A stretch of 64,000 nt of DNA from Candidatus Uhrbacteria bacterium (GCA_016187515.1 JACPJN010000007.1:68046-132045); one strand, 5' to 3'. Positions 6,541 to 54,782 are shown, numbered from the stretch's first letter. Made by a program: numbers and translations. The notes: generated by a model not told the origin, from the sequence alone.

Positions 6541-6550
6541 ACGTTTTCTA

Positions 6551-6628
6551 AGTTATTGGGTTATTGGGTTATTGGGTTATTTTTGAGTCAATTCGTAATA
6601 ACTCAATAACTTAGTAACTTAATAACTC
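6551..6628. repeat. Family-3 palindromic word-repeat (GTTATTG / TAATAAC words) between ftsA and ftsZ
   Basis: agttattgggttattgggttattgggttat ... aataactcaataacttagtaacttaataact. Confidence 0.8.
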
Positions 6629-8924: not shown

Positions 8925-9401
8925 TTAGGTTAATTCTTCGAGCACTTTCGCTTCTATCTTCTCCATCTTCCTCGCCTCTTTCTCTTGAACATGATCATAC
9001 TCCAGGAGGTGCAGGAAGCCATGCAAGGCCAGTCGAGCAATTTCGTAGTTCATGGTCCACCCGCACTTTTTTGCCTCGCGCTTTGCTTCCGGAAGGGAAA
9101 TAAAAATATCACCCAAGTCAACTGAAGAACGTAGGGACTTATGAACTAAAGAACTCGATTGTTCTTTCGTTCTTTTATTCTTTCGTTCTTTTGTTGTTCC
9201 AAACGCCAGCACATTCGTCGTCCTATCTTTCCCGCGATACTGACTGTTGAACGCGCGCATTTTTTCATCACCGACAAAACTGACTGATACGGCTGTACCG
9301 CTAGGATATTTTACATTCTTCGCGGCGTGCTCAATAATTTTTTTTACCACGCCGTCATATTTTTTTGCAGATGACAGTTCGTATCGAACAACAATTTCCA
9401 T
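8925..9401 (-). CDS. ybeY: rRNA maturation endoribonuclease YbeY
   Basis: HGFLHLLEYDH metal-binding motif. Contains a low-complexity insertion of about 30 aa. Confidence 0.85.
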   Translation of the reverse strand: MEIVVRYELSSAKKYDGVVKKIIEHAAKNVKYPSGTAVSVSFVGDEKMRAFNSQYRGKDRTTNVLAFGTTKERKNKRTKEQSSSLVHKSLRSSVDLGDIFISLPEAKREAKKCGWTMNYEIARLALHGFLHLLEYDHVQEKEARKMEKIEAKVLEELT

Positions 9402-10316: not shown

Positions 10317-10320
10317 AAAG

Positions 10321-10405
10321 GGAGTAAATCAAGCGAGACAAGCAAGGCAAGTAAATTAAGTACTGGACTTGCCTGATTTACCTGATTCACTTGATTTACT
10401 GACTT
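10321..10405. repeat. Family-2 palindromic word-repeat (GTAAATCAAG / CTTGATTTAC words)
   Basis: gagtaaatcaagcgagacaagcaaggcaagtaaattaag ... cctgatttacctgattcacttgatttac. Confidence 0.8.
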
Positions 10406-11343: not shown

Positions 11344-11373
11344 TTGACACCAGGCCGAAAATAACCTATGCTA
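11344..11373 (+). promoter_or_regulatory. Sigma70-like promoter (TTGACA-17-TATGCT) for the lipoprotein gene
   Basis: cttgaca ccaggccgaaaataacc tatgct. Confidence 0.4.
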
Positions 11374-11403
11374 AAAGTGGCTCTACCAACAAAGGAGGAA
11401 GCC

Positions 11404-19800: not shown

Positions 19801-22800
19801 CGACGAACAGCCATCGCCGTTTTCCAGGTTGCCATCATCACAATCTTCTCCGCGGTCAAGACAGCGGCCGCCTTGGCAGCTCTCTCCTGGCCCGCACTCG
19901 GAAGCATTGCGGCACGCCCGTCCGTCTCCGCAGCGCAGAGAAAAGTTTGATCCCTCATTAAGACAAACTGCGGAACAGCCGTCTCCGGAAGTCGTGTTGC
20001 CATCATCACACTCTTCTCCCGTCTCCACGCTGCCATTGCCGCAAGGCACGGCCCAGAGTAACGCGTTTTGAACATTGGTCACGCTTTGGGGATGCAAAGT
20101 GTTTGAGGAGGTAAACATGGCCACATTAAACCGCGCGGCAATCTTGGCGTTGGTACAGGCCTCTCCGCAAGCCGGCCACCATTGTATTACTTGCGGGTCC
20201 ATAAATGAAATCTTGAGCTTCCCAAAACCGGTGGTCCGTGGGGGCTGCGGCGGAGTATGCGCGCGGACTCTGATCTCTTCGCCTTGGGTGTCTTCCAAGG
20301 CAATTACGGTTACGGTCCAGGGCATGTGCTTACAATACCCTCCAACACAGGCCTCGGTCACGCAAGTATTGGGCTGACCGCCGCAGTCGGCATCTACCTG
20401 GCACGGCGCGTCGTAATTGTTGGAACAATGGCTGTACCCGATCGCGCACTCCGCGTCTTCACTACAGGCCTTGCCGATCGCCGGGGAAATTCCGCTGGAA
20501 TTATAAGTAACCGCCGCGCGCTCCGGATTCTCCGTATCATAGACATCCCAGGCCCACGAATAGTCGTCCGACGACGGCACTACGCAAGGATCGTCAAGCG
20601 CCACGGGAATTGCTAAATAATCAATCGGCTCATTTTCCGTAGTGGCCTCATAAGGGCTGGGCACCACCGCGATCCCGCCGACTTGACAAAGATTATTGTC
20701 CGGATTGGACTCGTTTTTGGTTTGAAACGCAAAACAGTACGCGGCGCGCGCGTCTCCGCAGCGGGATAAGCCGTCTGGAAGCGGGATCATGGGCTGGCCT
20801 TGAAGAGCGCCGCGATCTTGCGCGGTAATTCCTCCGGTCCCGCCCAAAAGTACCACGCGATACCAGGAACCGGCTGAAAAATTATCCGACAGCCAGAAAC
20901 TAAATCCTAATCCGCCGGAATACGGCCCAAATTTACGGCCGAGCGCCTGATCTTCAACTTGGCTGCAGGCCTCCCCTTCAATCTGGACATCATCAACATA
21001 AACCGCGAAGTCCTCTCCGGAACTCGCCTCCTCGCCAACCTCATAAGGATCGCCTTCCAAAAATACGCGCACATAGCCGGGAGCATTGCCATTAGGACTG
21101 GCATCAAAGGTCATGGTTACCGACACCGGCTGCCACTCATTGGTGAGCGTAATTTCGGACCGAACTTTTTGCCAAAAACCACGGGTGGCCAGACAGGTCC
21201 TTTGTCCGGCATTGGTTTGGCTCGCGCACCCGGTGTCCGCAGTACAAGCCACTCCGCCGGATATTCCGCCGCAACGCATTCCGTCAGCGCCGCCCGCGCG
21301 TTGAATTAAAATTCCGGCGCGCTTCCCCGCCCCCGCGGCATCAACCGCTTTCATCCACGCGGTTGCCGTATATATTTTCCCGCTGGTATCGGCAATGGCA
21401 TTGGCTTGGTACCCAAACCAATGCTCATAATTTTGTTGCAGTCCGCGAGTATCTCTCCATCCTGGGCCGGTGTCGTTGTCCAGCTTGGTAAGGGCGAGCG
21501 CAAAATTGCCCGGATCCGCACTAGAAGCGCCGCGCCCAGCGCCTAGCACGGTTTCCACCCCCAACAAATCCTCGTGGCGAAGGTTTGTCGGCGGATCCAG
21601 CGTGGGCTCTGGCGGGCGGCCCCACACGGCAGTATCCGCGGTGAAATTCGGACTTCCAAAAGTGGTGTCCGCGCCATTCAACAGTTCGGTCGGCGCCGTG
21701 CACTTTTGGAGCTTAATCGTCTGCGAATTTAAGGTCGCCGGATCAACCCGGGCGTCCGGATTAAAACTCACTGCCACGGCCGCGTTAACGCATACTCCGG
21801 TATTTGATCCTCTTCCGGATTCGACAGCCGGCGACGGCGAAGGCGGATATTGCGGAAAACCTTCCGCGTCGGCTGCTTTATCGCATCCTTCAAACACCGT
21901 CGGGGTAAGCGGGGCCTGGGAGGTGGTAAACTGCCAAGCAAACGCGGACTCCCCGGGCTGCGCGCCAGCGCAGTCCGCCCTACAAGTTCCGTCTCCACAG
22001 CAAGTCAGACCTCCGAGCGCGGCGCAATCCAAGCGCGCTTCATCAGGGGCCGGCAACCGGCAATCACCAACCAAAAACGTCCGCAAATTCGAAGCGCGCG
22101 TGATCTGGCCTCCTCCAGCTTGCGGAAAATCATTTTGTATAATTACCTCTCCGGCTGGAGTCCCAGCCACGGTGTTTCCGGGCACTTGCGCGCATACTTC
22201 TTGCGCGTCCCAGCCACCGCGCGGACAAGCATCCAAACGGATACCTCCGACATTGGTGAGCGTGGCCGGTAAAGTCGGCGCCCAGGACTGATCCGCGGAA
22301 CTCCTGCGCGCCGTAAATAGCGCCCCGCGGCCGGAAGCCGGCGCGGATCCAAACCGATCTCCAAAAATGCTGACATTGGTAAACGTTGGGCCGGAGGCCG
22401 GCTCAATACAAGCTAAAAATGGCGCGGCTGACTCTTGATCTAAAACATCAAAATCCTTGGGACTGGACTGCTGACGATCATAACGCTGCACATAAAGGTA
22501 GGCGCCATCATCAAAAAGAAGATCGGAGGCGCTGCCATCTTCATCCGCGTCGTGGATATCCAAAATGCGCGGCACTTTAACCGTGATCTGTATTGGACTC
22601 CACCAACTGCTCCCGCATTGCGAAGGAAAGTCCACGTTTCCCTGCACTCCTCGCCCATCGGAAGTAACAAACCAAACCATTCCGGGGGTATCGCCGAAAT
22701 TCCGTCCGGAAATGGTGCACCCGGCCCCTGGCCCGCCGCGCGCCGGATTATCTTCCGGCGCGCCCGCGCAAACTACCGTCGTAATAATTGGCAAAGTGCC

Positions 22801-24813
22801 GGCATCCGGAGAAAGCACGGTAAAGGGAAGGGCGTTGGAGGGAACTTTTTCGGTGTTTTCAACTTGCACCTGGGTTGGGCCAAATGCCAGCGCCGGCACG
22901 CGGCTTAAAATGGCAGTCGCGGACCAGGCGTCCACGGCGCCCGGCTGTCCGCCAAACCGCGCTTGCGCCCGCAGAATCTGCTTGCCCAGGCGGCGGGTCT
23001 GCTCGCCAAACTGCACACCGGTAATATTCACTGGCGCATTCCAAAGCCCGGCGATTGGATTCACGCTGCAAATCCCGGGGTGCTCCACCTCGTTTACTTC
23101 AAATAAACCGGTCGGAGTTGACGATCCGCGCGGCGGGGGATGAACCGGAACGATCGGGCCCCGCGAGTCATTGCTGGTGTCGCGGCACAGATTATCATTG
23201 TCCGCACACCCATCAGCGACCACCGTAACCGGCCCGACCTGCGCGCCCTCCGGAAGACCGACTAAAATATAATTATCAGACCAGGTCGTGTTACCCGCGC
23301 AGGCCTCCGGAGCTTGAGCGCGGACTCCGTTATGGAAAAATGCCGCGCCCGGGGTCTGGCCAAAATTTAATCCGGCGACCGTCACGAGTGTCCCGGCTTT
23401 ACCGTCTCCCGGAGAAATGCCGGTAATCGTCAAGGGCGTAGTGCACTCTTTATCTCCATCACCATCTAGATCCGTGCAAACCCCGCCGGAACATTGGATA
23501 TTATCCGTACAACTGCTGCCGTCGCACAATCCGCAGCCGGAGGGGCCGTCTGCCGCGCTATCGCAATTCGGCCCATCTTCATCATCATCTTGAAGCGGGA
23601 ACCCTAACTGGTCGCGATTAAAGCAGTGACTGGGACGGACGATCACCCGCACCGGAGCAGACCATACCGCGTTATCATCAATATCAAAAGCGCGCGCGCG
23701 CAACTGATGCTGGGCCGGAGCCGGCGGATTCGCCGGAAAACATGGTAAGGTTAAAATAATTTCCAGCGGATAAGTGCCTTCCGGCGGAGTAAGCAGGCCG
23801 TCTAGAAGTGCCGTCCCATCCGCATAGATTTCCACGTGCTCCACTCCCCCATCATCTTTGACTCTGACCTGAACCGGCACGCAAGTGTCCACTTCCACTG
23901 CCGCGCCGTCATCCGGCGACTCAATAGTTACTTCCGGCGGCGCCACATCAATAATACTTCCCGAACGAAACTCTACCCGACAAGTTGGCGCAAATCCGCC
24001 GCAAAGCAAATCCCGGCCATCAAAGCGTTTGACGCCGTCCGCCCCGTCTCGGATCTGCACCACAAATTCAGTATCCGCGTCAAAACAGCGCCGATCTTGA
24101 TTCGGTTCCGGACACGCCGCGGATGGGCGCAATTCTACGATATTGCCAACCACGGCCGCCGGCTCCAAGGCAACCGCTGCGCCGCTGTCTTTGCGCGTAA
24201 GGTTCAGATTTCCGGCCAGGGTCTCCGGGTCGGGCGCGCCGCTAAAAAATACCCGTACCACAATGTTGCGAATCGGCACCGCTCCGGAAGGGGCAATGCG
24301 CCGCACGATAAACGCGTCGGACGGTAAAAACGGGCAATCCGGTCCGGGACAGCGAACATCCGCGGGAATCGTGAGCGGCCCTCCGGCCGCTAACTGTAAA
24401 CGATTCAATACGAATTGGACAATTCCAAACGCCGAAAGAATAATCGCGAGTCCAATCACGGAATTAACCAGCACTTTTTTGGCCTTGTCAATTTGCTCTT
24501 CATTGCCGGCCGAAGTCAGCCATAAAAAACCGCCGTAAAGAATCAAGGCCACGGCCACCAGACCGAGAAAACCCAGCGCCACGCGAATGATGCGCGCCAC
24601 AATCACTCGCGGATCAGCCGTGGGCAAAATCAGTCCGGCTTGCCCGGGAACCGCCGCGATCTCTGCGCCGGTTTGAATCTGGGAAGGCAGCGGCACGCCT
24701 TGAGCCAGCGCCGTCGGAATGGAGAATGCAGAATGAAGAATGAAGAATAAGAAAATCACTACAAACCAGCGAAATATCCATCGGCAATGTTCAATCCGGC
24801 ATTCTAAATTCAT
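13822..24813 (-). CDS. Giant (3663 aa) secreted or surface protein: N-terminal T4SS-pilin-like (VirB2/TrbC-like, two TM helices) domain, Ig-like domains, about 20 Myxococcus-type cysteine-rich repeats, and an internal type IV pilin/GspG-like globular segment
   Basis: Uninterrupted 10,992-nt ORF. N-terminus is signal peptide, then LGFLGLVAVALILYGGFLWLTSAGNEEQIDKAKKVL, then IGLAIILSAFGIV. Contains CGNGxxExGEECDDGNxxxGDGCS repeats and SIQSALEDYRNTHGRYP. Confidence 0.9.
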   Translation of the reverse strand: MNLECRIEHCRWIFRWFVVIFLFFILHSAFSIPTALAQGVPLPSQIQTGAEIAAVPGQAGLILPTADPRVIVARIIRVALGFLGLVAVALILYGGFLWLTSAGNEEQIDKAKKVLVNSVIGLAIILSAFGIVQFVLNRLQLAAGGPLTIPADVRCPGPDCPFLPSDAFIVRRIAPSGAVPIRNIVVRVFFSGAPDPETLAGNLNLTRKDSGAAVALEPAAVVGNIVELRPSAACPEPNQDRRCFDADTEFVVQIRDGADGVKRFDGRDLLCGGFAPTCRVEFRSGSIIDVAPPEVTIESPDDGAAVEVDTCVPVQVRVKDDGGVEHVEIYADGTALLDGLLTPPEGTYPLEIILTLPCFPANPPAPAQHQLRARAFDIDDNAVWSAPVRVIVRPSHCFNRDQLGFPLQDDDEDGPNCDSAADGPSGCGLCDGSSCTDNIQCSGGVCTDLDGDGDKECTTPLTITGISPGDGKAGTLVTVAGLNFGQTPGAAFFHNGVRAQAPEACAGNTTWSDNYILVGLPEGAQVGPVTVVADGCADNDNLCRDTSNDSRGPIVPVHPPPRGSSTPTGLFEVNEVEHPGICSVNPIAGLWNAPVNITGVQFGEQTRRLGKQILRAQARFGGQPGAVDAWSATAILSRVPALAFGPTQVQVENTEKVPSNALPFTVLSPDAGTLPIITTVVCAGAPEDNPARGGPGAGCTISGRNFGDTPGMVWFVTSDGRGVQGNVDFPSQCGSSWWSPIQITVKVPRILDIHDADEDGSASDLLFDDGAYLYVQRYDRQQSSPKDFDVLDQESAAPFLACIEPASGPTFTNVSIFGDRFGSAPASGRGALFTARRSSADQSWAPTLPATLTNVGGIRLDACPRGGWDAQEVCAQVPGNTVAGTPAGEVIIQNDFPQAGGGQITRASNLRTFLVGDCRLPAPDEARLDCAALGGLTCCGDGTCRADCAGAQPGESAFAWQFTTSQAPLTPTVFEGCDKAADAEGFPQYPPSPSPAVESGRGSNTGVCVNAAVAVSFNPDARVDPATLNSQTIKLQKCTAPTELLNGADTTFGSPNFTADTAVWGRPPEPTLDPPTNLRHEDLLGVETVLGAGRGASSADPGNFALALTKLDNDTGPGWRDTRGLQQNYEHWFGYQANAIADTSGKIYTATAWMKAVDAAGAGKRAGILIQRAGGADGMRCGGISGGVACTADTGCASQTNAGQRTCLATRGFWQKVRSEITLTNEWQPVSVTMTFDASPNGNAPGYVRVFLEGDPYEVGEEASSGEDFAVYVDDVQIEGEACSQVEDQALGRKFGPYSGGLGFSFWLSDNFSAGSWYRVVLLGGTGGITAQDRGALQGQPMIPLPDGLSRCGDARAAYCFAFQTKNESNPDNNLCQVGGIAVVPSPYEATTENEPIDYLAIPVALDDPCVVPSSDDYSWAWDVYDTENPERAAVTYNSSGISPAIGKACSEDAECAIGYSHCSNNYDAPCQVDADCGGQPNTCVTEACVGGYCKHMPWTVTVIALEDTQGEEIRVRAHTPPQPPRTTGFGKLKISFMDPQVIQWWPACGEACTNAKIAARFNVAMFTSSNTLHPQSVTNVQNALLWAVPCGNGSVETGEECDDGNTTSGDGCSAVCLNEGSNFSLRCGDGRACRNASECGPGESCQGGRCLDRGEDCDDGNLENGDGCSSQCLNEGTGPALCGNGKINPGEECDNDRNRQAGDGCSAQCLREGTSSNFAVCGNSRLEAGEECEVNFDHEFASWCDPQDCLRRGNPVSPLLCGNGQIDPGEECDPNSPLLNTPAKRNLCTSICQWTGTRRPSSAGGQGCGNGRIELGEDCDDGNLRPGDGCSEVCVNEGSIAAGSVPACGDGILASEAEDCDDGNTNAGDGCSPNCLNEGTRFAQCGNGLREYAEDCDDGNRLSGDGCLPQCLNEGSEPALCGNGVLDNGEDIGCDGGERDPLCTVRCLKPGRLAERVLSPALSWKSAENTLEIGLTDNPATSAREDLLLPNTFYRVLLKGGSAGLHSSRRDSSVPGKPLAGLNFSYNWAGRDAITGAMLAPGPGKCAGAQCNTFSWTFKTGASSCQVDRVELSPPQAALYLIGARASFSAEPRSAPDACDPQGQRLNSLSYDWGWKIDDPELEEDDRVAGVVGNTMIAGVVRTGVDRLPSCGNGVREYAEDCDDGNLIDGDGCLAQCLNEGSSAGILGRFACGNGIIDPGEECDPPGLPGCTASCLHAGALARCVAPEQTNCCGSGGDPEPGNGEDCDDGNVLPGDGCSTQCRNEGTSRATTCGNGQIDRGEECDPEDQQRYRDLLGAPLLSEFCDPATCLLKGTLPVSTCGNGLVEAGEECDQLNNRANGDGCSSRCLNEGTPSPFCGNGRIDRFEDCDDGNTAAGDGCSARCLNEGTVAESPRRIDPIQQARALGIRKFCRKETGEFKEPRAPCSSNGNCTDENFPVCAPPNPWSTVAVEAAVEGQAGAPGSASITVFCVARSEADCPTPGQGPSEAVGRGSDNCCYLRPKIVERVPGINTPDACPNGLLEVTFDQPMDSANLDQAIGIAKRVENTATCPDGLTLQGRARNSVWCADPSLSLKASVESAAQGSRLVLQPSRILDNATDYQITIAGDPNLNDLIASGVRSIFGVAFRGPAAEGGTDSSWNFTTGSEICTVENVRVNVTGADEAVSIFEGEGGAGFSRPGQQAQVRAEALSSSGQALQRTTGYSWAWSWRSAENTVASVTNEPDPINAADPINADPDQTVTAGNRNGETDVNATATITDASALPQPEDHQDAVREGSAEFITTLCENPWPSRIEHPLPRFEDREGALLGGGDPMNFRTWYCRDSGEEGLAGDLPALIYPGAIRPPAAGADEGAPVTLDTFRIATSHTGPAPLKEYLLVESAEKQQAIGIRVFPNPRRLPVRTWYEQMGFTGTPAPINPGVDGYEAIRDRNTVYVAGTNAVTDRYVPTLKVVYSNIYVLSLSENAPSAMQQVFDQFVSNFQLNVNVENSNRDKLRRDLLRLNHISSIQSALEDYRNTHGRYPPLQAGTFIRSMSTSKWPSWQATLGATLGASLPQDPLNSFAPGCAAIPGERGQFDPATCWNEQTQTYRCPAGSHVYQYRAIGAVDYELGVDFELLYRPPAPGQSRWEVFNFDPAGTNLLTPSNCSWVSAPGAPAGGLWSNATATCGNGILERGECLPDGTCANYPGVSCGVNNCQEFCEVGQEEVQQARWFGYCGDPGAPFEGGFRQRCNPETGVISTAPRFPDSGSTCTLHARGSSCVPLRSCSLNPSKECVNDENCADNEGVCILSSQCQAVRACTNRCEWNDAPQVTDWQIWGGSQNPTSNLDICQGGVICGNGIREGSEVCDDGLLNGQYGKCNTVCARTCIGGPNQGNICTEDNNCFPWGQCSATALSAYCGDGTRNGPEVCDSTNSSGAACVNGDYGCCRFDCSGPGARCGDNEIQEEWNEQCEAGDTRQSPQVCMWVWGASDFGKPCRQDSDCDTSFGSCKFTGPIQWDGTHVYDSQQFTEPEGYPYLWRQACRSGGPCRWGGLTTVAQGQCGNGAREGNEQCDDGTTNDGQNDAAENADGCINDCKHAKCGDGFNQGLVCVGTGDRNRDGVTCRRDQDCGRGRCTDPEECDEGTSNGTRCTPGYGLVGCTYCDNQCNISTLSGGVLVEEGAALD

Positions 24814-27342: not shown

Positions 27343-27353
27343 AAAAACAACCT

Positions 27354-27387
27354 AACAAAATAAGGTCCGGCCGGACCTTATTTTGTT
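27354..27387. repeat. Perfect 34-bp palindrome aacaaaataaggtccgg|ccggaccttattttgtt (bidirectional terminator-like), copy 1
   Basis: Identical copy at 28094-28127. Confidence 0.85.
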
Positions 27388-27480
27388 ATACACAGTTTTG
27401 ACTTATTTTAGACAATTTTATACTTTAGACTATCGACTCCTTTCAATCACGGCGTCCTCCACTCCCTAATCACACTCCTT

Positions 27481-27500: not shown

Positions 27501-28103
27501 ATGTCCGGCGCACCTCCTACACAATCCGCACAATCAAAAGAGCGGCTCGCTGATGTGCGGGATTATCTTCATGGTCTTGCGGAATGGGCGGAGTGGGCAA
27601 GCTCGGGTAAGGCCTGGATGAGCATCGCAGAGTATCAGGATTGGAAACGCCGCGAGATCATGAGAGAGAAAAAAGAAATGCTCTATGAACTAAAGCGTCG
27701 TAAATGGATTGAAACTAAAACCATCGGTAAGCGACTGGTGGGACGGCTCACCGAAGCCGGATGGCAGATGGCGCTGCGAAATCGGATACGGAACGAGGAC
27801 AAAAAATGTACCAGCGGTAACTGTTTTATAATTTTTGATATTCCCGAATCACAACGGTATATACGAAAACTGTTAAGACAGTTCATCAAAGAATGCGGCT
27901 TCAAGCGATTACAACATAGTGTATGGATTACTGACAAAGATGTGGCAAAACCTCTCCTACTCCTTCTTCAACGCCGCAAACTCAATCGCTGGGTCCAGAT
28001 AATCCAGGGTCACGTACTTACCTCTTCCACAATCGACACTATCCGAGCTATAAGGACCACTGCAAATACGAATACTTCTCATTTATATCATCCAACAAAA
28101 TAA
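27501..28103 (+). CDS. PaaX-like protein: N-terminal winged-helix plus C-terminal Cas2-fold domain
   Basis: CFIIFDIPESQRYIRKLLRQFIKECGFKRLQHSVWIT matches the Cas2/PaaX_C beta1-alpha1-beta2 pattern. The stop codon lies inside the downstream palindrome. Confidence 0.55.
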   Translation: MSGAPPTQSAQSKERLADVRDYLHGLAEWAEWASSGKAWMSIAEYQDWKRREIMREKKEMLYELKRRKWIETKTIGKRLVGRLTEAGWQMALRNRIRNEDKKCTSGNCFIIFDIPESQRYIRKLLRQFIKECGFKRLQHSVWITDKDVAKPLLLLLQRRKLNRWVQIIQGHVLTSSTIDTIRAIRTTANTNTSHLYHPTK

Positions 28104-28127
28104 GGTCCGGCCGGACCTTATTTTGTT
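28094..28127. repeat. Perfect 34-bp palindrome, copy 2 (identical to 27354-27387)
   Basis: Exact match to copy 1. Confidence 0.85.
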
Positions 28128-28151
28128 GCTAACCTTACATACTAGAATACT

Positions 28152-38646: not shown

Positions 38647-39504
38647 TTATGTTACCACCTCCGCCCCGCGCTTGCGCACAATCACCGTATGCTCAAAATG
38701 CGCCGAGGGTTTGCCATCGGCCGTTACGATGGTCCAGCCGTCGGGTTGCACATTGACGCGCCAGGTTCCTAAATTTACCATCGGCTCAATCGCAATCACC
38801 ATTCCCTCTTGCAGTATGCAATCCGGAAATCCTTCCACCCAAAAATTCGGGATCTCTGGCGGTTCGTGCACGCGGTAGCCCACGCCGTGTCCGACGAGTT
38901 CGCGCACAATCCCAAACCCAAATTTCTCCACATACTTTTCAATGGCTTTGGAAATATGGCTAACGCGATGACCGGCGCGCACTTGTTTGATGCCAATCTT
39001 TAACGCGCGCCCGGTTACTTTGATCAGTTCACGCACCTTGCGATCCACGCGGCCGACCATGACTGTGCGTGCCGTATCAGTATAGAGACCCCTCCTAACC
39101 TCCCCTTGTAAAGGGGAGGAAATTGTTTCATTTCTCCCCCTCTCGGAGGGGGAGTGAGAGGGGGTCCGTAGAACCGGCCACCGCATGCCGATGTCTATTT
39201 TCACAAGATCTCCATCCTTAATTACCCGCGACGGCACCGCCGGCGCGTGCACTACTTCCTGATTTAGGCACGCGCAAATCGTCGTGGTAAACGGCGGATG
39301 ATCCGGCCGCGGCGCGTAGCCCTTAAACGCCGGCTCTCCGCCGGCCTCCCGAATCATCCGCTCCGCCGCCACATCAAGTTCTTCGGTCGTTACTCCCGGC
39401 TTTACCATTTTACAAAGTCGCTCCAAAATCTTCGCCAAGCGCTTTCCGCCTTGGCGAATCAACTCCAGCTCCTTGGGGTTCTTTATAGTTGCTCCGCGTT
39501 CCAT
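38647..39504 (-). CDS. map: Type I methionine aminopeptidase with an in-frame repeat-encoded insertion of about 32 aa
   Basis: VVHAPAVPSRVIKDGDLVKIDIGM [insertion] GLYTDTARTVMVG ... HGVGYRVHEPPEIPNF ... IEPMV. Confidence 0.9.
   Translation of the reverse strand: MERGATIKNPKELELIRQGGKRLAKILERLCKMVKPGVTTEELDVAAERMIREAGGEPAFKGYAPRPDHPPFTTTICACLNQEVVHAPAVPSRVIKDGDLVKIDIGMRWPVLRTPSHSPSERGRNETISSPLQGEVRRGLYTDTARTVMVGRVDRKVRELIKVTGRALKIGIKQVRAGHRVSHISKAIEKYVEKFGFGIVRELVGHGVGYRVHEPPEIPNFWVEGFPDCILQEGMVIAIEPMVNLGTWRVNVQPDGWTIVTADGKPSAHFEHTVIVRKRGAEVVT
39085..39168. repeat. Family-1 element (cctcccctt gtaa aaggggagg / ctccccctc tc gagggggag), in frame inside map
   Basis: Seen in the sequence. Confidence 0.85.
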
Positions 39505-40791: not shown

Positions 40792-40796
40792 AGTGA

Positions 40797-40874
40797 TTGA
40801 GTTATTAAGTTAAGGGTTATTAAGTTATTGAAATCACTACTTAATAACTTACTAACTCAATAACCTAATAACTC
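40797..40874. repeat. Family-3 palindromic word-repeat
   Basis: gattgagttattaagttaagggttattaagttattg ... cttaataacttactaactcaataacctaataact. Confidence 0.8.
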
Positions 40875-41676
40875 CAAATCCGGCCAAGGTTCCCAGCACA
40901 ATTGAAGGCAGCGCCGGCAAGGGGCGGCGATGACCCAACTGGAACAAGAGATCCGTGCCTAAAAGACCGAGCAGTGACCCGGCCGCGGCGCCGACGCCAA
41001 ACCAAAATCCTTCCCGCGCCGCGGCGGCCACAAATACCGCGGGGAGCGCCAGGTCTCCGGTTCCCAGAAAGAAAAAACCCTCGCCCGGGGTAACCGCGCG
41101 CAGCTTTTTAAAAAACCATCTTGGACGCTCGGGAAGGATCAGCGCGAAAATCACTCCCTTATCAAGCAGACCCTTAAACATGGTTACCATGTGGTGGGTT
41201 CCATAAACCGCGATCACATCATAGAGACCCAGAATAATCAGCACCACTGCCATTGATTCCCAAGCAATCACGCTTCCCAACGAGGCCGCGATACCGGCAA
41301 TCCCCCCGAGCATAATCACATTCTGCGCGATAATCAGAGGAAACAAGTAGCGCAGGGCAATCAGCCCCAGGGCTAAAAATAACGCCTCCTGCGGAAGATA
41401 CAGCTCCAAAAGCGCCCAAAGACCAATCAGAATCGACAAGCCAAAAATCGCTTCAAATACGACTCGGCGCCGGAGCTTGCGGATCAGAAAAAAAAGCACT
41501 GCCGTGGATAATAAAAAAGAGAAAATCAGCCGCGGCGCGGATAATTCCAGCGTTGTTCCGGAACCGACCAGGATATCGGCGCTCCTTAAGCGCGCGGCGG
41601 CCGATAAAACCAGCGCCTCGGTTGCCGCCAGCAGAAGCACGGTTTGTAAGATAAGAAAAAGCTGCTTTTTGGACAT
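40852..41676 (-). CDS. Presenilin / signal-peptide-peptidase-like intramembrane aspartyl protease homolog (A22-like)
   Basis: Polytopic membrane protein with ordered motifs LGLYDVIAVYG (YD), FLGTGDLALP (GxGD) and LPALPSI (PAL). Confidence 0.55.
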   Translation of the reverse strand: MSKKQLFLILQTVLLLAATEALVLSAAARLRSADILVGSGTTLELSAPRLIFSFLLSTAVLFFLIRKLRRRVVFEAIFGLSILIGLWALLELYLPQEALFLALGLIALRYLFPLIIAQNVIMLGGIAGIAASLGSVIAWESMAVVLIILGLYDVIAVYGTHHMVTMFKGLLDKGVIFALILPERPRWFFKKLRAVTPGEGFFFLGTGDLALPAVFVAAAAREGFWFGVGAAAGSLLGLLGTDLLFQLGHRRPLPALPSIVLGTLAGFGVIRLLS

Positions 41677-41726: not shown

Positions 41727-41963
41727 TTACTGGCCGAAAATGGCTTGCTCAATGGCCGAGGCGTCTCCTTCGGAGATTTTGAACTCGGCGCGCAGCTTAC
41801 GCAGACCTTTGCGCAACTCCGCTTCATATAGCCCGCCGGACCGCGCTTGCTTAAGCAGCTCTTTGACCTGCGCCTGTTCTTTCCAGCCCAACCGCTCGCG
41901 AAGTTTATATAAAATCGCGTTGATTTCCCGATCGGAGAGTTGTTTAGCCATATATTTAGTCAT
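41727..41963 (-). CDS. Hypothetical small protein (78 aa)
   Basis: ORF between secY and the protease gene. Confidence 0.4.
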   Translation of the reverse strand: MTKYMAKQLSDREINAILYKLRERLGWKEQAQVKELLKQARSGGLYEAELRKGLRKLRAEFKISEGDASAIEQAIFGQ

Positions 41964-43317: not shown

Positions 43318-43326
43318 AGTTGCGTT

Positions 43327-43407
43327 GAGTAAATCAGGTAAATCAAGCGAGACAAGTGAATCAAGTGTTTGACTGGCCTGATTTACTTGATTCACTTGAT
43401 TTACTCT
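43327..43407. repeat. Family-2 palindromic word-repeat between rplO and secY
   Basis: gagtaaatcaggtaaatcaagcgagacaagtgaatcaagtgtttgactggcctgatttacttgattcacttgatttac. Confidence 0.8.
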
Positions 43408-43843
43408 CAACAGAGCCACCGGCCTGCTCTATTTTAGCACGCGCGGACTTAGAAAGCGAACAACCCTTAACCGTTAGGGCCTTTGTCAGCGTACCCTCTC
43501 CCAGAATTTTAATCGGCGCTCGTAGATTCTGTACCAAATCAAACTTTACTAAAAGTTCCGGCGTAATTGACGTGCCGGCCGCGAAACGCTCATCAAGCAC
43601 TCCGACATTCACCACCGCGGGTCTTCGATGAATGGAAGTAAAGCCGCGCCCCTTGGGGATTCTTTGCATAATCCGCTTCAGTCCGATGCGCTTAAGTCCA
43701 CGGCGTCCGCCTGATCGCGCGCGCTGACCCTTAGTTCCCTTTCCCGCGGTAGTCCCTCGCCCGGAACCGGCGCCGCGACCAATTCGTCTGACTCTGGTGC
43801 GCGAGCCGGAAGCGGGTTTTAGATTGGAAAGCGTGAATGTCAT
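43361..43843 (-). CDS. rplO: 50S ribosomal protein L15; last about 13 aa encoded by the repeat
   Basis: MTFTLSNLKPASGSRTRVRRIGRGAGSGRGTTAGKGTKGQ. Confidence 0.9.
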   Translation of the reverse strand: MTFTLSNLKPASGSRTRVRRIGRGAGSGRGTTAGKGTKGQRARSGGRRGLKRIGLKRIMQRIPKGRGFTSIHRRPAVVNVGVLDERFAAGTSITPELLVKFDLVQNLRAPIKILGEGTLTKALTVKGCSLSKSARAKIEQAGGSVESKSSESSKSGQSNT

Positions 43844-43851
43844 ATTGGGCG

Positions 43852-43938
43852 GGATGGCCACGGATTTTCTACGGATGGCCGACGGATCACGGATCCGTGA
43901 TCTTGTGGCTATCCTGTCTTCTATCCGTGGCTATCTAT
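43852..43938. repeat. Family-6 palindromic repeat (CACGGAT / ATCCGTG words), at the position where rpmD (L30) would normally lie
   Basis: gatggccacggattttctacggatggccgacggatcacggatccgtgatcttgtggctatcc. Confidence 0.8.
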
Positions 43939-44815: not shown

Positions 44816-45370
44816 TTAGGCGCCCGCGCCGGCGGTCTTCGCGGCCTTACCGGCCTTTCTTCTGATCACCTCGCCGGCATACTTAATACCCTTGCCTTTA
44901 TAGGGTTCCGGCTTGCGAATCGCGCGAACTCTAGCGGCAAAGGCGCCCACGCGCGCTTTGTCAAAACTCCCCAGATTAATTGTACTCTTTTCCACCGTAC
45001 AAGTAACGCCCTCGGGGATATCCAGCTCCACCGGATGAGAAAAGCCCGCCTCGACGATAAGCTTTTTTCCCTGCACGGAAGCGCGATATCCGACTCCCAC
45101 CATTTCAAGTTTTTTCTCAAACGGAGTAAACACTCCTTGCACTAAATTGGCCAGCAGCGCCCGATGCAGTCCCCAAAGCGCGCGTTCGGCTTTTACCTGC
45201 GGATTCTTTACCGAAACCGCCAGTAATCCTTTTTCCTGGATTACCTGAACCGCCGGGTGAATTTTAAGCTGATTTTCTCCCTGGGGGCCCTTGGCCGCGA
45301 TAATATCGCCGGCAATCACTACACTGACTCCGGACGGAATTGGGATTGGTTTTTTTCCAATGCGCGACAT
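44816..45370 (-). CDS. rplF: 50S ribosomal protein L6
   Basis: MSRIGKKPIPIPSGV. Confidence 0.9.
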   Translation of the reverse strand: MSRIGKKPIPIPSGVSVVIAGDIIAAKGPQGENQLKIHPAVQVIQEKGLLAVSVKNPQVKAERALWGLHRALLANLVQGVFTPFEKKLEMVGVGYRASVQGKKLIVEAGFSHPVELDIPEGVTCTVEKSTINLGSFDKARVGAFAARVRAIRKPEPYKGKGIKYAGEVIRRKAGKAAKTAGAGA

Positions 45371-45374
45371 AATT

Positions 45375-45451
45375 TTAGTCGTCAGTCATCAGTTCACGGT
45401 TCACAGTACCGATCGATACTGTTGACTGTGAACTGACGTCTGTGAACTCAA
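45375..45451. repeat. Family-4 palindromic word-repeat
   Basis: gtcgtcagtcatcagttcacggttcacagtaccgatcgatactgttgactgtgaactgacgtctgtgaact. Confidence 0.8.
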
Positions 45452-45853
45452 TTAATAAATCTCACAGATAATCTCTCCGCCCAACTTTCTCTTGATGGCT
45501 TCTTTATCCGTCATTAATCCTTGCGGGGTCGATACAATTCTAAATCCGCGCACCACGCCGCTTTTCTTGAGATCAGCATGTCCCATGTAGATTCTGCTGC
45601 CCGGCTTTGAAATTCTTTTTAAAATATGGATCGCGTTTTTCTTACCCTCGCCGTATTTAAGGACGACCTGAAGATCGTCAAAGCTGCCTATCCGGGAGCG
45701 TACTTTCTCCGCCGACAAAATATAGCCCTCTTTAAGCAAGATCTCGGCAATCGCGAACTTGATCTTGGAGTACGGCAAACTTACCTCGGTCTTCCTGGCC
45801 AGCGAGGCGTTACGGATACGGGTGAGCATGTCAGCGATAGGATCAGTCATCAT
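45452..45853 (-). CDS. rpsH: 30S ribosomal protein S8
   Basis: MTDPIADMLTRIRNA. Confidence 0.9.
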   Translation of the reverse strand: MMTDPIADMLTRIRNASLARKTEVSLPYSKIKFAIAEILLKEGYILSAEKVRSRIGSFDDLQVVLKYGEGKKNAIHILKRISKPGSRIYMGHADLKKSGVVRGFRIVSTPQGLMTDKEAIKRKLGGEIICEIY

Positions 45854-45865
45854 AGGTTGAGGAAA

Positions 45866-45945
45866 TGAGTTATTGGGTTATTGAGTTATTCGTATCGTTT
45901 CAGCGTACTTAATAACCTAATAACTTAATAACTCTTAACTAATAT
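45866..45945. repeat. Family-3 palindromic word-repeat
   Basis: gagttattgggttattgagttattcgtatcgtttcagcgtacttaataacctaataacttaataact. Confidence 0.8.
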
Positions 45946-46736: not shown

Positions 46737-47048
46737 TCAATCAATGATCGTGCGGCATTTTTTACAAACGCGGCGCTTTTTTTCTCCCGCTTTCATCACG
46801 TATCCTACTCGCGTGGTTTTACCGCACTTCGGACAGACCAGCGCCACTTTTGAGGACGGCAGCGGAGCGGGAAACTCCACTACTTGACCCTGTTGTCCTT
46901 GTTTGCGGGGACGAGTGTGCTTTTTGTGCAGATTAACCCCTTCCACCGTGACTGTTCCATTTTGAAGAAATACATTTAACACTTTCCCGGTTTTACCCTT
47001 CGAGGTTCCGGTTAGTATTTTTACAATGTCTCCTTTTTTAATCTTCAT
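46737..47048 (-). CDS. rplX: 50S ribosomal protein L24 with a C-terminal CxxC...CxxC zinc-ribbon-like tail
   Basis: MKIKKGDIVKILTGTSKGKTGKV ... CPKCGKTTRVGYVMKAGEKKRRVCKKCRTI. The track start at 47156 is read-through into the repeat. Confidence 0.85.
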   Translation of the reverse strand: MKIKKGDIVKILTGTSKGKTGKVLNVFLQNGTVTVEGVNLHKKHTRPRKQGQQGQVVEFPAPLPSSKVALVCPKCGKTTRVGYVMKAGEKKRRVCKKCRTIID

Positions 47049-47994: not shown

Positions 47995-48000
47995 ATCTTG

Positions 48001-48086
48001 GGTTATGAGTTATTGGGTTATTGAGTTATTCGTATTGATTGGCCGTACTTAATAACCTAATAACTTAATAACTCTTAACTCTTATT
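48001..48086. repeat. Family-3 palindromic word-repeat
   Basis: ggttatgagttattgggttattgagttattcgtattgattggccgtacttaataacctaataacttaataact. Confidence 0.8.
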
Positions 48087-48488: not shown

Positions 48489-48497
48489 ATTGTGTTG

Positions 48498-48560
48498 GGT
48501 AAATCAGGCGAGGCAGGTGAATCAAGCTCTTGATTTACTTGATTTACTTGATTTACTTGC
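48498..48560. repeat. Family-2 palindromic word-repeat
   Basis: gggtaaatcaggcgaggcaggtgaatcaagctcttgatttacttgatttacttgatttac. Confidence 0.8.
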
Positions 48561-49203: not shown

Positions 49204-49297
49204 GTAGTTATTAGGTTATGAGTTATTGGGTTATTAAGTTATTCGTATTGATTTCGACGCATTTAATAACCTAATAACTTAATAACTATTAACTCTT
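49204..49297. repeat. Family-3 palindromic word-repeat
   Basis: gtagttattaggttatgagttattgggttattaagttattcgtattgatttcgacgcatttaataacctaataacttaataact. Confidence 0.8.
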
Positions 49298-49627: not shown

Positions 49628-49708
49628 GAGTCGTCAGTCATCAGTTCACGGTTCACAGTACGATCGGAATCAATACTGTCGACTGTGAACTGACGTCGGT
49701 GAACTACT
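49628..49708. repeat. Family-4 palindromic word-repeat
   Basis: gagtcgtcagtcatcagttcacggttcacagtacgatcggaatcaatactgtcgactgtgaactgacgtcggtgaact. Confidence 0.8.
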
Positions 49709-50039: not shown

Positions 50040-50050
50040 ATTGTGTGTCG

Positions 50051-50128
50051 GGTAAATCAAGTAAATCAGGCGAGGCAAGTGAATCAAGCGCTTGATTTAC
50101 CTGATTTACTTGCTTCACTTGATTTACC
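50051..50128. repeat. Family-2 palindromic word-repeat
   Basis: ggtaaatcaagtaaatcaggcgaggcaagtgaatcaagcgcttgatttacctgatttacttgcttcacttgatttac. Confidence 0.8.
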
Positions 50129-50954
50129 GTCGTCTTTTTATAATTAAACTGTCAGACCATTTCTCGCGTTTGCGGGTTTTGACTCCCAAGGCCGGCTTGC
50201 CCCACGGAGTTTTTGGACGAGTCAAGCCGATCGGATTATGACCTTCTCCGCCGCCGTGGGGGTGATCGACCGGATTCATGGCCTTACCGCGCACCGTCGG
50301 CCGGCGTCCTTTGTGGCGCATCCGGCCGGCTTTTCCCCAGCGAATAAGCCGCCGATCCGGATTGGAGACCTGTCCCAGGGTCGCCGAGGCGTCTTGCGAA
50401 ACCTTGCGCACTTCCCCGGAAGGGAGCTGAACTTGCGCGTAACCATTTTCCAGAGCCAGCAGTACCGCGCTTTCTCCCGCGCTGCGAACCAGAATGCCCC
50501 GGGTGGCCGGCTCCAGTTCAATGCTAAAGATCGGCTGACCAACCGGAATGTATTTCAACGGCATGCGGTTGCCCGGTTTTGGCTCGACCGGCTTTCGCGA
50601 GGAAATCACGGCCGCTCCGACTTTAAGACCGTTGGGCGCGACAATATACCGGCGCTCGCCATCTGCGTATTTAATAAGCGCAATCCGCGCGCTGCGGTAG
50701 GGGTCATATTCAATGGCCTCCACCACGGCGGGAAGATCGTACCGATCCTGCTTAAAATCAATCAAACGATAATAGCGCTTGGCTCCGCCGACCCGATGGC
50801 GCACCGTGACTTTTCCTTGGATATTGCGGCCGGCGTGAGTGGGGAGCATGACGGTAAGCGATTTCTCCGGTTCATGCTTGGTAATATCTTCAAAGGCATC
50901 CACGCTGATATTGCGGCGTCCGGAACTGGTAGGTTTTAGAATTCGGATTGGCAT
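50124..50954 (-). CDS. rplB: 50S ribosomal protein L2
   Basis: [14 protein letters not shown]. Confidence 0.9.
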
Positions 50955-50958
50955 ATAT

Positions 50959-51040
50959 TGAGTCATCAGTCATCAGTTCACGGTTCACAGTATTGTTGGA
51001 CTCAATGCTGTTGACTGTGAACTGACGTCTGTGAACTATT
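50959..51040. repeat. Family-4 palindromic word-repeat
   Basis: tgagtcatcagtcatcagttcacggttcacagtattgttggactcaatgctgttgactgtgaactgacgtctgtgaact. Confidence 0.8.
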
Positions 51041-51461
51041 TCTTGTACACATCAATGGTTTTCCCGGCTGGTAAAGCCACCACGGCCTTTTTCCAATCCT
51101 TGGTCTGGCCTCCGGACCGGCCGAAACGCACCAGTTTACCGGCCATCCGGGTCATATTTACCGCCGTCGGCTTTATCCCGAACAGTTCCTCCACCGCTTT
51201 CATTACTTCGCCTTTGGAGGATGAAATTCCCACTTCAAAGATATACTGGCCGGACGCTTGCAGCAGGGAGGACTTTTCGGAAACATGCGGACGCAGCAGG
51301 ACGTGCGCGTATCGGCCGGCGCCCTGCGGCGCAGAGCTTAGGGCGGGAAGCGGAGAGCTTTTAGCCGCTACCGCTTGCGCTTTGCTCGCCGCGCTTTGCT
51401 CGCCGCGCTTTGCCCCAAAGGGCTTCTTTTTCCAACGAAATAATTTATCAAGAAAGGCCAT
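51036..51461 (-). CDS. rplW: 50S ribosomal protein L23 with an N-terminal extension of about 45 aa containing a 14-nt x3 tandem repeat
   Basis: HVLLRPHVSEKSS ... the L23 core. Repeat cgctttgctcgccg at 51375-51416. Confidence 0.85.
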   Translation of the reverse strand: MAFLDKLFRWKKKPFGAKRGEQSAASKAQAVAAKSSPLPALSSAPQGAGRYAHVLLRPHVSEKSSLLQASGQYIFEVGISSSKGEVMKAVEELFGIKPTAVNMTRMAGKLVRFGRSGGQTKDWKKAVVALPAGKTIDVYKK

Positions 51462-51466
51462 ATATT

Positions 51467-51540
51467 GAGTCGTCAGTCATCAGTCCACGGTTCACAGTAC
51501 CGATCGATACTGTCGACTGTGAACTGACGTCTGTGAACTA
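51467..51540. repeat. Family-4 palindromic word-repeat
   Basis: gagtcgtcagtcatcagtccacggttcacagtaccgatcgatactgtcgactgtgaactgacgtctgtgaact. Confidence 0.8.
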
Positions 51541-52838: not shown

Positions 52839-53007
52839 AAAGCAAAAGCCAGAAACCCGCCGGATACGAGTTTCTAGCCCTTAATTACACAAAGGCCCGC
52901 TATTTTCTTGATCTCAAGTTACGCGATACGCTTTACTTTCTATGCTTCCGGCAGGTTGCGGATGTTTTCTTGAAGATCTTATCCGCCCCATTTTGAAGCA
53001 TGGTTCG

Positions 53008-53062
53008 ATTTTTCATTCGTGAGTCATTCGTAAACATTCGCGAACGATTCGTGTATACTTAC
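53008..53062. repeat. Family-5 word-repeat (CATTCGT words)
   Basis: ttttcattcgtgagtcattcgtaaacattcgcgaacgattcgtg. Confidence 0.6.
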
Positions 53063-53434: not shown

Positions 53435-53497
53435 TTAGTTATTGAGTTATTAAGTTATTATTTACTCAATAACCCAATAACTCATAACTTAATAACT
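53435..53497. repeat. Family-3 palindromic word-repeat
   Basis: ttagttattgagttattaagttattatttactcaataacccaataactcataacttaataact. Confidence 0.8.
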
Positions 53498-54690
53498 CAC
53501 TTTATAATTTTCGTCACCACCCCGGCGCCCACGGTTTTACCGCCCTCACGGATCGCAAACCGCTGCTTCTCTTCCAGCGCCACCGGGGAGATAAGTTTGA
53601 TTTTAAGCGCTACCGTATCGCCCGGCATGACCATTTCCACTCCGGCCGGAAGCTCCGTAATGTCTCCGGTGACGTCCGTAGTGCGAATGTAGAACTGCGG
53701 CTTGTATCCTTTGAAGAACGGCTTATGCCTTCCGCCTTCTTCTTTGGTCAAACAATACACTTCCGCCTCGACTTCCGTATGCGGGGTAATCGAACCCGGC
53801 TTGGCGAGCACCATCCCGCGCTCCACTTCTTCTTTTTTGGTGCCGCGCAGCAAGATTCCGGCATTGTCCCCGGCGCGCCCTTCGTCCAATTGTTTGTTAA
53901 ACATCTCAATACCGGTTACGACGGTCTTGCGCGTGTCTCCCAAACCCACAATCTCGATTTCCTCGTTGATCTTAACCTGGCCGCGTTCAATACGGCCGGT
54001 TACGACCGTACCGCGGCCTTCAATGGAAAAGATATCCTCAATCGGCATCAGGAAGGGCTTGGCGACATCGCGCACCGGTTCAGGAATATATTCATCCAGG
54101 ATTTTGACCAACTCCAAAAGCGGTTTAGCGGACTCTTCATCCTTGGGATTCTGCAGGGCTTTGAGCGCTGAACCGCGAATAATCGGGGTGGTGTCCCCGG
54201 GAAAATCGTATTTTTTAAGCAGTTCGCGAACCTCTTCTTCCACCAGATCAATCAGCTCCTTATCTTCCACTTGATCAACTTTATTCAAAAATACCACAAT
54301 AAAAGGCACGCCGACTTGACGGGCCAGCAAAATGTGTTCGCGGGTTTGCGGCATCGGGCCGTCGGCGGCGGAAACCACCAAAATCGCGCCATCCATCTGG
54401 GCCGCGCCGGTAATCATGTTTTTTACATAATCCGCGTGCCCGGGACAGTCCACGTGAGCGTAGTGGCGCTTGTCCGATTCATACTCCACATGAGCAGTGG
54501 CAATCGTAATTCCGCGCGCCTTTTCTTCCGGCGCGTTATCAATTTGATCCACTGATTTATCCTGCGCTTTCATGCCATGCGCGCGCAGCACGTTTAAAAG
54601 CGACGCCGTCAAAGTCGTCTTGCCATGGTCAACGTGGCCAATGGTGCCCACGTTAATATGTGGTTTAGTGCGCTCAAATTTCTCGGCCAT
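53497..54690 (-). CDS. tuf: Elongation factor Tu
   Basis: [29 protein letters not shown]. Confidence 0.97.
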
Positions 54691-54698
54691 ACTTTTTT

Positions 54699-54782
54699 AG
54701 TGAGTGATTGAGTTATTAAGTTATTGAGTTATTAAGGCATGAAAAACCTAATAACCTAATAACTCAATAACTTAATAACTAC
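54699..54782. repeat. Family-3 palindromic word-repeat
   Basis: agtgagtgattgagttattaagttattgagttattaaggcatgaaaaacctaataacctaataactcaataacttaataact. Confidence 0.8.

Follow-up and report, generated by a model that had tools for sequence, protein, structure and literature searches.

In the reduced genomes of host-dependent Rickettsia, the Rickettsia palindromic elements (RPEs) proliferate and are tolerated at the ends of genes. REPINs and REP elements are mobilized by RAYT transposases in Pseudomonas and Enterobacteria (PMC3116915, PMC3733652), and one end of a REP bears a conserved tag, GTAG or CGTC, that stays unpaired (PMC3733652). The RNA hairpins of Correia MITEs are co-transcribed with genes and are substrates of RNase III (PMC10969869). 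Intergenic heptamers have also been described. The TAACTGA repeats of Beggiatoaceae, Cyanobacteria and Bacteroidetes lie a few nucleotides from start codons, including in ribosomal-protein operons, and most of these sites lack a ribosome-binding site (PMC4679880). Many bacterial genomes contain an excess of heptamer repeats, as with GGGAATC in Xanthomonas, and this has been ascribed to slippage (PMC4692102). For the repeat considered here, termed family 4, no prior description was found in the literature, neither among repeats of CPR bacteria (Patescibacteria) nor among hairpin elements of ribosomal-protein operons.

The stretch of DNA analysed, 64 kb long and hereafter called the window, comes from Candidatus Uhrbacteria, a CPR bacterium, as shown by an L2 protein 100% identical to an NCBI entry of that name, and carries the S10/spc operon on its minus strand:

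54690-40138, minus strand: EF-Tu, S10, L3, L4, L23, L2, S19, L22, S3, L16, L29, S17, L14, L24, L5, S14, S8, L6, L18, S5, L15, SecY, a 74-aa ORF (orf74), a presenilin/SPP-type protease and adenylate kinase

L23 was named through a Pfam match on the identical Logan contig L001, and L4 through its position and its synteny with two relatives (L124 and L125). The gene for L30 is absent from this operon, and no GGAGG-like Shine-Dalgarno motif is present at any of its start sites. The gene for the presenilin/SPP-type intramembrane protease (40852-41676) lies between secY and adk, inside the spc operon, and the order secY/protease/adk is kept in three of three relatives (L128-L130). The ORF of unknown function that follows secY (74-75 aa; 41727-41951 in the window) occurs in L129 and L130 and is missing in L128. 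The S10-L3 spacer (52839-53058) is unusually long at 220 nt, and an 18-bp stem with a U-rich tail (52883-52843) abuts the L3 start. This stem, GGCUAG...CUAGC, is kept in all relatives examined (spacers at 1216-1436 in L124, 1256-1418 in L125, 8136-8380 in L129 and 7731-8243 in L128). No Rfam family matches the spacer, and the stem may be an attenuator or an autoregulatory leader that is placed after S10 rather than before it.

Six junctions between genes hold a copy of family 4, and each copy occupies one intercistronic gap, from the stop codon to 3-10 nt before the next AUG (predicted folding energies in kcal/mol; scores are those of the family model):

51468..51539, minus strand: copy between L4 and L23 (rplD/rplW), dG -35.2, 104.6 bits
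50961..51037, minus strand: copy between L23 and L2 (rplW/rplB), dG -30.9, 96.3 bits
49629..49705, minus strand: copy between S19 and L22 (rpsS/rplV), dG -29.3, 86.9 bits
47053..47126, minus strand: copy between L14 and L24 (rplN/rplX), dG -32.6, 94.6 bits
45377..45448, minus strand: copy between S8 and L6 (rpsH/rplF), the one that an earlier sequence-only reading had singled out, dG -36.9, 106.6 bits
41958..42033, minus strand: variant between SecY and orf74, dG -31.7, 60.2 bits

All six copies were found where the sequence-only reading had placed them, and a repeat finder recovers them as well. The left-arm word CAGTTCACGGTTCACAGTAC occurs five times in the 64-kb window with at most one mismatch, and the right-arm word CTGTGAACTGACGTCTGTGAACT six times with at most two, whereas shuffled sequences lead one to expect 0.00 occurrences of either. 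The description of the copies as near-identical is accurate for five of them (45375, 47052, 49628, 50959 and 51467), whose arms carry about 2% substitutions. It does not extend to the copy at 41958, a rearranged variant in which the heptamer words are reordered in both arms while the stem is retained, with 67-78% ungapped identity and a score of 60 bits against 87-107 bits for the other five. The loops vary just as that reading had listed them. All six copies fall within 10 kb, which has a chance of about 0.0015 if junctions are equally likely to be occupied. No further copies are present in the rest of the window or in the 10 kb past its right end, and none of the copies examined lies inside coding sequence.

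The unit is a palindrome of about 75 nt (72-80 nt) that folds into a stem of about 28 bp with symmetric internal loops, and the predicted stability of the window copies ranges from -29 to -37 kcal/mol. Its 5' arm reads UUCACAG ACGUCAG UUCACAG UCGACAG UA, and its 3' arm reads UACUGUGAA CCGUGAA CUGAUGA CUGACGA CU. Each arm comprises four to five heptamers made of a constant CAGU (5') or ACUG (3') core and three variable bases, with a TRF period of 7 or 14. The words differ from one another (UUCACAG, ACGUCAG, UCGACAG and others) and follow the same order in five copies. An arm is a direct heptamer series with no palindrome of its own, and folding is possible only for the whole element, in which the outer GAGU...ACUC pairs and the arms are complementary over their full length. 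The element has no coding capacity and contains stop codons in several frames. Hairpins were counted with an inverted-repeat finder that tolerates G-U pairs; a gapless search misses family 4 because of its internal loops, and sliding-window RNAfold over the whole window did not separate hairpins from GC-rich coding sequence.

The fit between element and junction is close. The stem begins 0-6 nt past the stop codon and ends 3-10 nt ahead of the AUG, and the A/U-rich start context, often CAAUAUAUG, stays unpaired on its 3' side. At L4-L23 the element's 5' end joins directly onto the UAG stop (51538-51540), and the L23 AUG is at 51459-51461. The L23-L2 copy has a 13-nt variant loop, its stop UAG at 51036-51038 and the L2 AUG at 50952-50954, and the S19-L22 copy has a longer variant loop and its stop UAG at 49704-49706. 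Three window copies, together with a copy on another contig (L127, below), have a UAG stop whose AG supplies the first stem pairs. At L14-L24 the stop UAA lies 4 nt upstream of the element and the L24 AUG is at 47046-47048, and at S8-L6 the stem can be extended to 45370-45454 through flanking UAAUU/AAUUA. Directly before UUCAC, GUAG is found in three of nine copies (S19-L22, L126 and L127), and the others have AUAG, UGAG or CGAG. The 5' flank is UA in five of eight copies and UUGA or CGA in the remaining three, and the 3' flank is (C)AAUAU, AAAAUU or GAUU. No direct repeat is common to the flanks as a target-site duplication would be, a comparison of the filled site with the empty one in the relative L122 gives no clean duplication, and the flanks of eight copies define no fixed insertion target.

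Several familiar roles for intergenic hairpins were considered and rejected. The terminator-like sites include none of the six copies, whose stems have no U run behind them. Promoter-like sites are not enriched in the region. Across the whole window no Rfam family matches at its gathering score, and an E-value scan returned only sub-threshold hairpins resembling miRNAs. A ribosomal-protein autoregulatory leader also finds no match in Rfam, and it is implausible because six identical sites stand ahead of six different genes and are absent from relatives. A CRISPR array was ruled out, as the copies are spaced irregularly with whole genes between them.

The history of the sites can be read from the same operon in related genomes, listed here by the identity of their L2 to that of the window:

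L122, 91%: L23-L2 junction 8 nt, L2-S19 junction 10 nt
L123, 85%: L23-L2 junction 5 nt, L2-S19 junction 14 nt
L124, 76%: most junctions 1-12 nt; L2-S19 27 nt, S17-L14 32 nt, S3-L16 73 nt, S19-L22 107 nt
L125, 75%: nearly all junctions 1-12 nt
L130, 72%: most junctions below 12 nt, with a maximum of 22 nt

At L23-L2 the empty site reads AAGAAAUAA AUU AAUAUAUGCC, and the filled one, AAGAAAUAG-element-AAUAUAUGCC, has both flanks in common with it. Because these flanks are shared and the orthologous junctions are short, family 4 entered after the split from the nearest sampled relatives, and the window copies are recent, lineage-specific insertions into very short spacers. The relatives differ in what their junctions hold. 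S3-L16 and S19-L22 of L124 contain hairpins of that genome's own; L124, L128 and L129 have hairpins of other families at other junctions; L130 has none, and the operons of L125 and L130 are essentially without such hairpins. Occupancy that differs in this way across the clade points to turnover and not to conserved regulation, and family-4 sites are not conserved by position. Within the species, no empty/filled polymorphism and no excision product was seen.

The sequence-only reading had the copies confined to the spc/S10 region. This is true of the window and of the 10 kb to its right, but not of the family. A search of a JGI metagenome with a specific 23-nt word yielded two more copies on Uhrbacteria-like contigs:

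L126, same orientation to genes as the window copies: copy about 5 nt upstream of rpsL
L127, sense to genes: copy between a pilM-like gene and the next ORF, with the upstream UAG stop fused to the element

The L126 copy likewise begins UAGUUCAC, yet the upstream ORF stops about 100 nt earlier. Copies at unrelated loci in another species are 82-87% identical. In the L126 species the S12 protein is 82% identical and its DNA 73%, and at third codon positions identity falls to 42-47%, the level of saturation; despite this, the L126 copy is 87% identical to the window consensus. Such identity beside saturated sites implies either selection on the sequence of the element or horizontal transfer. A covariance model built from eight copies also finds, between S3 and L16 of L124, a homologue that has diverged (46 bits, 60% identity). 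Its start, UAGUU, and its end, ...AACUCAAUA-N-AUAUG, match those of family 4, and it forms a 27-bp stem and uses UUCGUAG words. Eight of its stem pairs are changed on both sides, in an alignment that was guided by the model and is therefore biased towards the structure. Judging from these comparisons, family 4 is Uhrbacteria-wide and older than its window copies, and its arm sequence is either constrained or horizontally transferred at the level of the family.

Of the two possibilities that the sequence-only reading had left, selection on the stem and recent spread, each is borne out in part. The test for compensatory substitutions that it had suggested came out at chance level among eight copies, in which 89.2% of cells are paired compared with 89.0% after shuffling and one double-sided change is seen where 0.9 is expected. 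In the absence of covariation the close copies give no evidence of selection on the stem, and recent spread, which the empty L23-L2 sites of 8 and 5 nt document, explains their similarity. Spread alone is nevertheless insufficient, given the slow change of the arms, the 87% identity across species and the stem kept in L124. Per base, the loops have gathered changes at about six times the rate of the arms (5/40 nt versus 7/320 nt, p=0.006), and the seven arm substitutions include three at unpaired internal-loop positions and one that turns a U-A pair into U-G. All nine copies are in sense orientation to the flanking genes (two-sided p=0.004). When folding energies of the mRNA and antisense strands are compared, three copies favour the mRNA, one favours the antisense strand and two are equal, and the other hairpin families likewise have no consistent preference for the mRNA strand. 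Constraint on the arms therefore cannot be assigned to RNA over DNA.

Similar arrangements are found in other phyla. A contig search with CAGTYCACRGTTCACAGT was unspecific (about 69 matches are expected by chance) and mostly returned (GTTCACA)n arrays from many phyla. The family model matches about 22 of 98 other-phyla loci retrieved through a (GTTCACA)-type word, each of them an inverted (NNNCAGT)n / (ACTGNNN)n pair; the 98 loci were chosen for one arm, and what they tell is limited to their having the inverse arm too. Hairpin-forming inverted heptamer arrays occur in Acidobacteriota, Bacteroidota, Nitrospirota, Firmicutes, Actinomycetota and Desulfobacterota (among L003-L121), with the following as examples:

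L024, 1039-1130: inverted heptamer array
L061, 5240-5330: inverted heptamer array
L029, 3760-3848: inverted heptamer array
L023, 3428-3509: inverted heptamer array
L080, 6415-6496: inverted heptamer array

Several such arrays, including those of L029, L080 and L023, exactly fill a stop-start junction of co-directional genes. These loci show that the (NNNCAGT)n / (ACTGNNN)n hairpin architecture is widespread across bacteria.

Family 4 is also not the only hairpin in the operon. About 18 of 24 operon junctions hold one, compared with about 9 of 47 junctions elsewhere in the window (p=7e-6), and these operon hairpins, 60-90 nt in size, fall into at least five families, family 4 included. The others are as follows, by junction or by window coordinates:

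EF-Tu-S10, L22-S3, L16-L29, S14-S8 and SPP-adk: GUUAUUNN octamer hairpins
40792-40875, 45862-45938, 47998-48080, 49204-49292, 53436-53499, 54703-54782, 6549-6632 and 61795-61882: family with GTTATTNN octamer arms
L2-S19, S3-L16 and L15-SecY: GUAAAUCAN nonamer hairpins
43325-43408, 48496-48559, 50049-50130, 10316-10400, 33135-33220 and 60369-60460: family with GTAAATCAN nonamer arms
S17-L14 and L5-S14: hairpins of ACGAAU-type words
L3-L4 and S5-L15: GAUCACGGAUCCGUGAUC palindrome

These families use unrelated words of 8, 9 and 11 nt, and their first word often gives the upstream gene its stop codon. This is frequently so in the GTTATTNN family, whose first word is UGA, UAA or UAG followed by GUUAU, of which several copies are 86-95% identical with the loop included, and whose words also form a hairpin at S5-L15 of the relative L129. 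At L15-SecY the L15 frame (43361-43861) runs 14 codons into the hairpin at 43325-43408, and calling SecY as the longest ORF places a spurious start inside this hairpin. The spacer between S12 and S7 holds a hairpin of 11-nt words, CACUGAACC..., in the window (59858-59942) and one of different words, CUACGAAAACUACAAAAC..., in L126 (1420-1510), another instance of a single junction occupied by different hairpin families in different species.

Palindromes are also found inside genes of the window. One family is GC-rich, with units of 80-90 nt and predicted energies of -43 to -56 kcal/mol:

2208-2296, 36259-36337, 39083-39170 and 252-334: palindromes of the form CCCTCCCC...GGGGAGGG

Members lie in frame within ORFs, at residues 65-94 of a CobA/BtuR-like protein, at residues 112-141 of an M24 methionine aminopeptidase and at residues 124-150 of RecO, between its RecO_N and RecO_C domains. 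Such in-frame palindromes fit a genome that has been invaded by palindromic elements. An A-rich hairpin of GTTCTTTC-type words (9110-9205) lies within the ORF of the YbeY endoribonuclease (residues 66-98), apparently inserted in frame. On either side of a PaaX-like gene, at 27353-27388 and 28093-28128, stand two perfect 16-bp hairpins (AACAAAATAAGGTCC-N4-GGACCTTATTTTGTT); they look like bidirectional terminators and are not related to the word-array hairpins. The window also encodes a 3663-aa ORF of unknown nature (13822-24813, minus strand), which adjoins a 786-aa Kelch-repeat protein (11368-13728) with a 150/297-nt tandem repeat inside (12706-13718). Hairpin repeats mislead gene callers and break short-read assemblies. 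In the window L24, S19, L2 and SecY were given spurious N-terminal extensions because of them, and L15 a C-terminal extension that is real.

The explanation favoured here, with somewhat better than even confidence, is that family 4 is a small non-coding, non-autonomous mobile palindrome of the REPIN/MITE kind, co-transcribed and tolerated; it is most likely not a conserved regulatory RNA. An enzyme or nucleic-acid-binding protein that acts in trans, its gene lying elsewhere in the genome, would recognize the hairpin or the word array and copy it, and machinery that reads the hairpin or its words would account for constrained arms and free loops. Insertions presumably survive only in the few non-coding bases between genes, where each copy would be transcribed within the polycistronic ribosomal-protein mRNA. 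Such an insertion might be tolerated because it folds on itself and keeps stop and start codons close in space, because stop codons come with it, both at the 5' edge and in more than one frame, and because it leaves the AAUAUG start context unpaired, with no ancestral Shine-Dalgarno sequence to disrupt. RNase III is likely to act on a 28-bp stem in so highly expressed a transcript, and the stem likely affects ribosome re-initiation, but any influence on expression, be it through cleavage by RNase III, through protected mRNA ends or through a change in translational coupling, would be a by-product, and not the reason for the element. Two observations could be turned against mobility, as the clustering of six copies may reflect a local copying process or selection in the operon, and conservation across species may reflect a function in the host.

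A rival view is that the element is an exapted intercistronic RNA module, kept for its work in the mRNA as an RNase III or other processing site that divides the long ribosomal-protein transcript, as a stabilizing 5' or 3' hairpin or as a stop-start bridge for re-initiation without Shine-Dalgarno sequences. The sense orientation of nine of nine copies would be expected of such a module, as would arms conserved across species, a stem set 0-6 nt past the stop and 3-10 nt before an AUG whose AAUAUG context is unpaired and lacks a Shine-Dalgarno sequence, the strong enrichment of hairpins at ribosomal-protein operon junctions, and the precedent of co-transcribed Correia MITEs as RNase III substrates (PMC10969869). 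However, the operons of L125 and L130 manage essentially without these hairpins, which makes them dispensable, and both the junctions occupied and the family occupying them vary between relatives. Moreover, folding energies do not single out the mRNA strand (three copies for it, one against, two equal), covariation is absent among the copies, and replication direction could equally produce the orientation bias. An exapted module is thus unlikely, although it deserves more credit than any other rival. If the arms are instead arrays that a protein reads, with S1, a Csp-like protein or another single-strand binder recognizing ACTG heptamers and the inverted arm being incidental or masking, then conservation of arm sequence beyond its pairing, the recurrence of the same CAGT/ACTG words in many phyla, and the 3' arm (GAACCGU GAACUGA UGACUGA CGACUCA) placed directly ahead of the AUG would all make sense. 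TAACTGA arrays are similarly sited near start codons (PMC4679880), and a protein-binding role has been proposed for these repeats in Beggiatoaceae and for heptamer repeats in Nostoc. Such binding is nonetheless improbable. The words are base-paired in the predicted fold and hence closed to a single-strand binder, no protein emerged as a candidate to bind them, and the unrelated 8-, 9- and 11-nt words of the other operon families mean that no single recognition word explains the phenomenon.

A further proposal is that the elements were made in place, with slippage building the arrays, template switching inverting an arm and gene conversion homogenizing nearby copies. The over-representation of heptamer repeats in bacteria, ascribed to slippage (PMC4692102), is in keeping with this, as are the six copies clustered within 10 kb and the whole-word permutations by which the variant at 41958 differs in both arms. 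Still, the copies share an order of non-identical words and part of a loop at sites that are whole genes apart, which implies the copying of a finished unit, and local conversion cannot yield copies that are 82-87% identical at unrelated loci of another species, so that this origin is highly improbable. An assembly or binning artefact that duplicated one sequence, which the sequence-only reading had raised as a way to be wrong, would account for the high similarity of the copies and for nothing more. Specific bases and the loops tell the copies apart, each copy sits between different, intact and correctly ordered ribosomal-protein genes, and Logan contigs assembled independently from other sequencing runs reproduce three copies in the same places, one contig in 14 samples, and mis-assembly is thereby excluded. 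A more ambitious version of mobility is doubtful, if a little less so than protein binding: family 4 might be one of a bacteria-wide class of mobile heptamer-array hairpins that have a conserved copying machinery and prefer stop-start junctions, and that in CPR bacteria lacking Shine-Dalgarno sequences perhaps act as working stop-hairpin-start cassettes. A cassette of this type, if real, would supply a stop codon and keep the next start within reach of the terminating ribosome, and would explain why nearly every ribosomal-protein junction can carry one.

Few gene clusters of bacteria are as tightly packed and as conserved as the ribosomal-protein operons, and CPR genomes are small and streamlined, but about three quarters of the junctions of this operon hold 60-90 nt hairpins that close relatives lack. 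Selfish palindromes, it would follow, can invade even a ribosomal-protein operon, and the translation of its genes puts up with a long stem between stop and start, or makes use of it.

As a mobile palindrome, family 4 has much in common with REPINs. Both are short, non-coding, multi-copy and extragenic, with a hairpin unit of about 70-110 nt whose tip is less conserved; both are often transcribed within operons; and in both the family persists while its sites turn over, and the potential to form a hairpin survives divergence. There are differences as well. A REPIN consists of two inverted REP palindromes and a spacer, whereas the arms of family 4 are direct heptamer arrays. The GTAG tag of REPs has an inconsistent counterpart, GUAG preceding the element in three of nine copies. 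A cognate RAYT is usually a single-copy gene flanked by the repeats; no RAYT, Y1_Tnp or other transposase or IS-like gene was found among the roughly 48 non-ribosomal ORFs of the window or on L131 (74 kb in all, roughly a tenth of the genome). The host, a CPR bacterium, has a small genome. Bacterial MITEs (Correia/NEMIS, ERIC, RUP, Nezha) are, like family 4, small, non-autonomous, gene-adjacent and co-transcribed elements with inverted ends (PMC10969869), and their insertion sites are likewise lineage-specific. It is plausible that RNase III cuts family-4 RNA as it does Correia RNA. A MITE, however, has short terminal repeats around a core, whereas family 4 is a single whole hairpin and shorter (about 75 nt); of the other features of MITEs, no target-site duplication could be identified, and no related autonomous insertion sequence with the same ends was found within 74 kb.

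Other systems resemble family 4 in part. RPEs are palindromic too, but family 4 is shorter, lies outside coding sequence and shares no sequence with them; The GC-rich palindromes in frame inside ORFs of the window are reminiscent of RPEs. The early RNase III sites of phage T7 and the REP in malE-malF are long imperfect intercistronic stems, but the analogy is functional only. Their positions are conserved and their function has been demonstrated, whereas the positions of family 4 differ between relatives. In the build of its arms family 4 matches the heptamer repeats. The cyanobacterial STRR1 (CCCCAGT) and STRR3 (CAACAGT) repeats carry the same CAGT core as the words of family 4, and STRR and TAACTGA arrays share with it the 7-nt period, the ACTG/CAGT core, the location a few nt upstream of start codons and in ribosomal-protein operons, and a context without Shine-Dalgarno sequences. 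Inverted pairs have been noted occasionally in STRR, TAACTGA and GGGAATC arrays, whereas family 4 is always paired with its inverse, and STRR and TAACTGA arrays repeat one homogeneous word to a variable length, whereas family 4 is a fixed series of different words dispersed as a unit. Family 4 thus joins the dispersed palindromic repeats of the REPIN/MITE type with the intergenic heptamer repeats of cyanobacteria, Beggiatoaceae and others, and is most likely a small palindromic mobile repeat that is built from heptamer arrays with a CAGT core.
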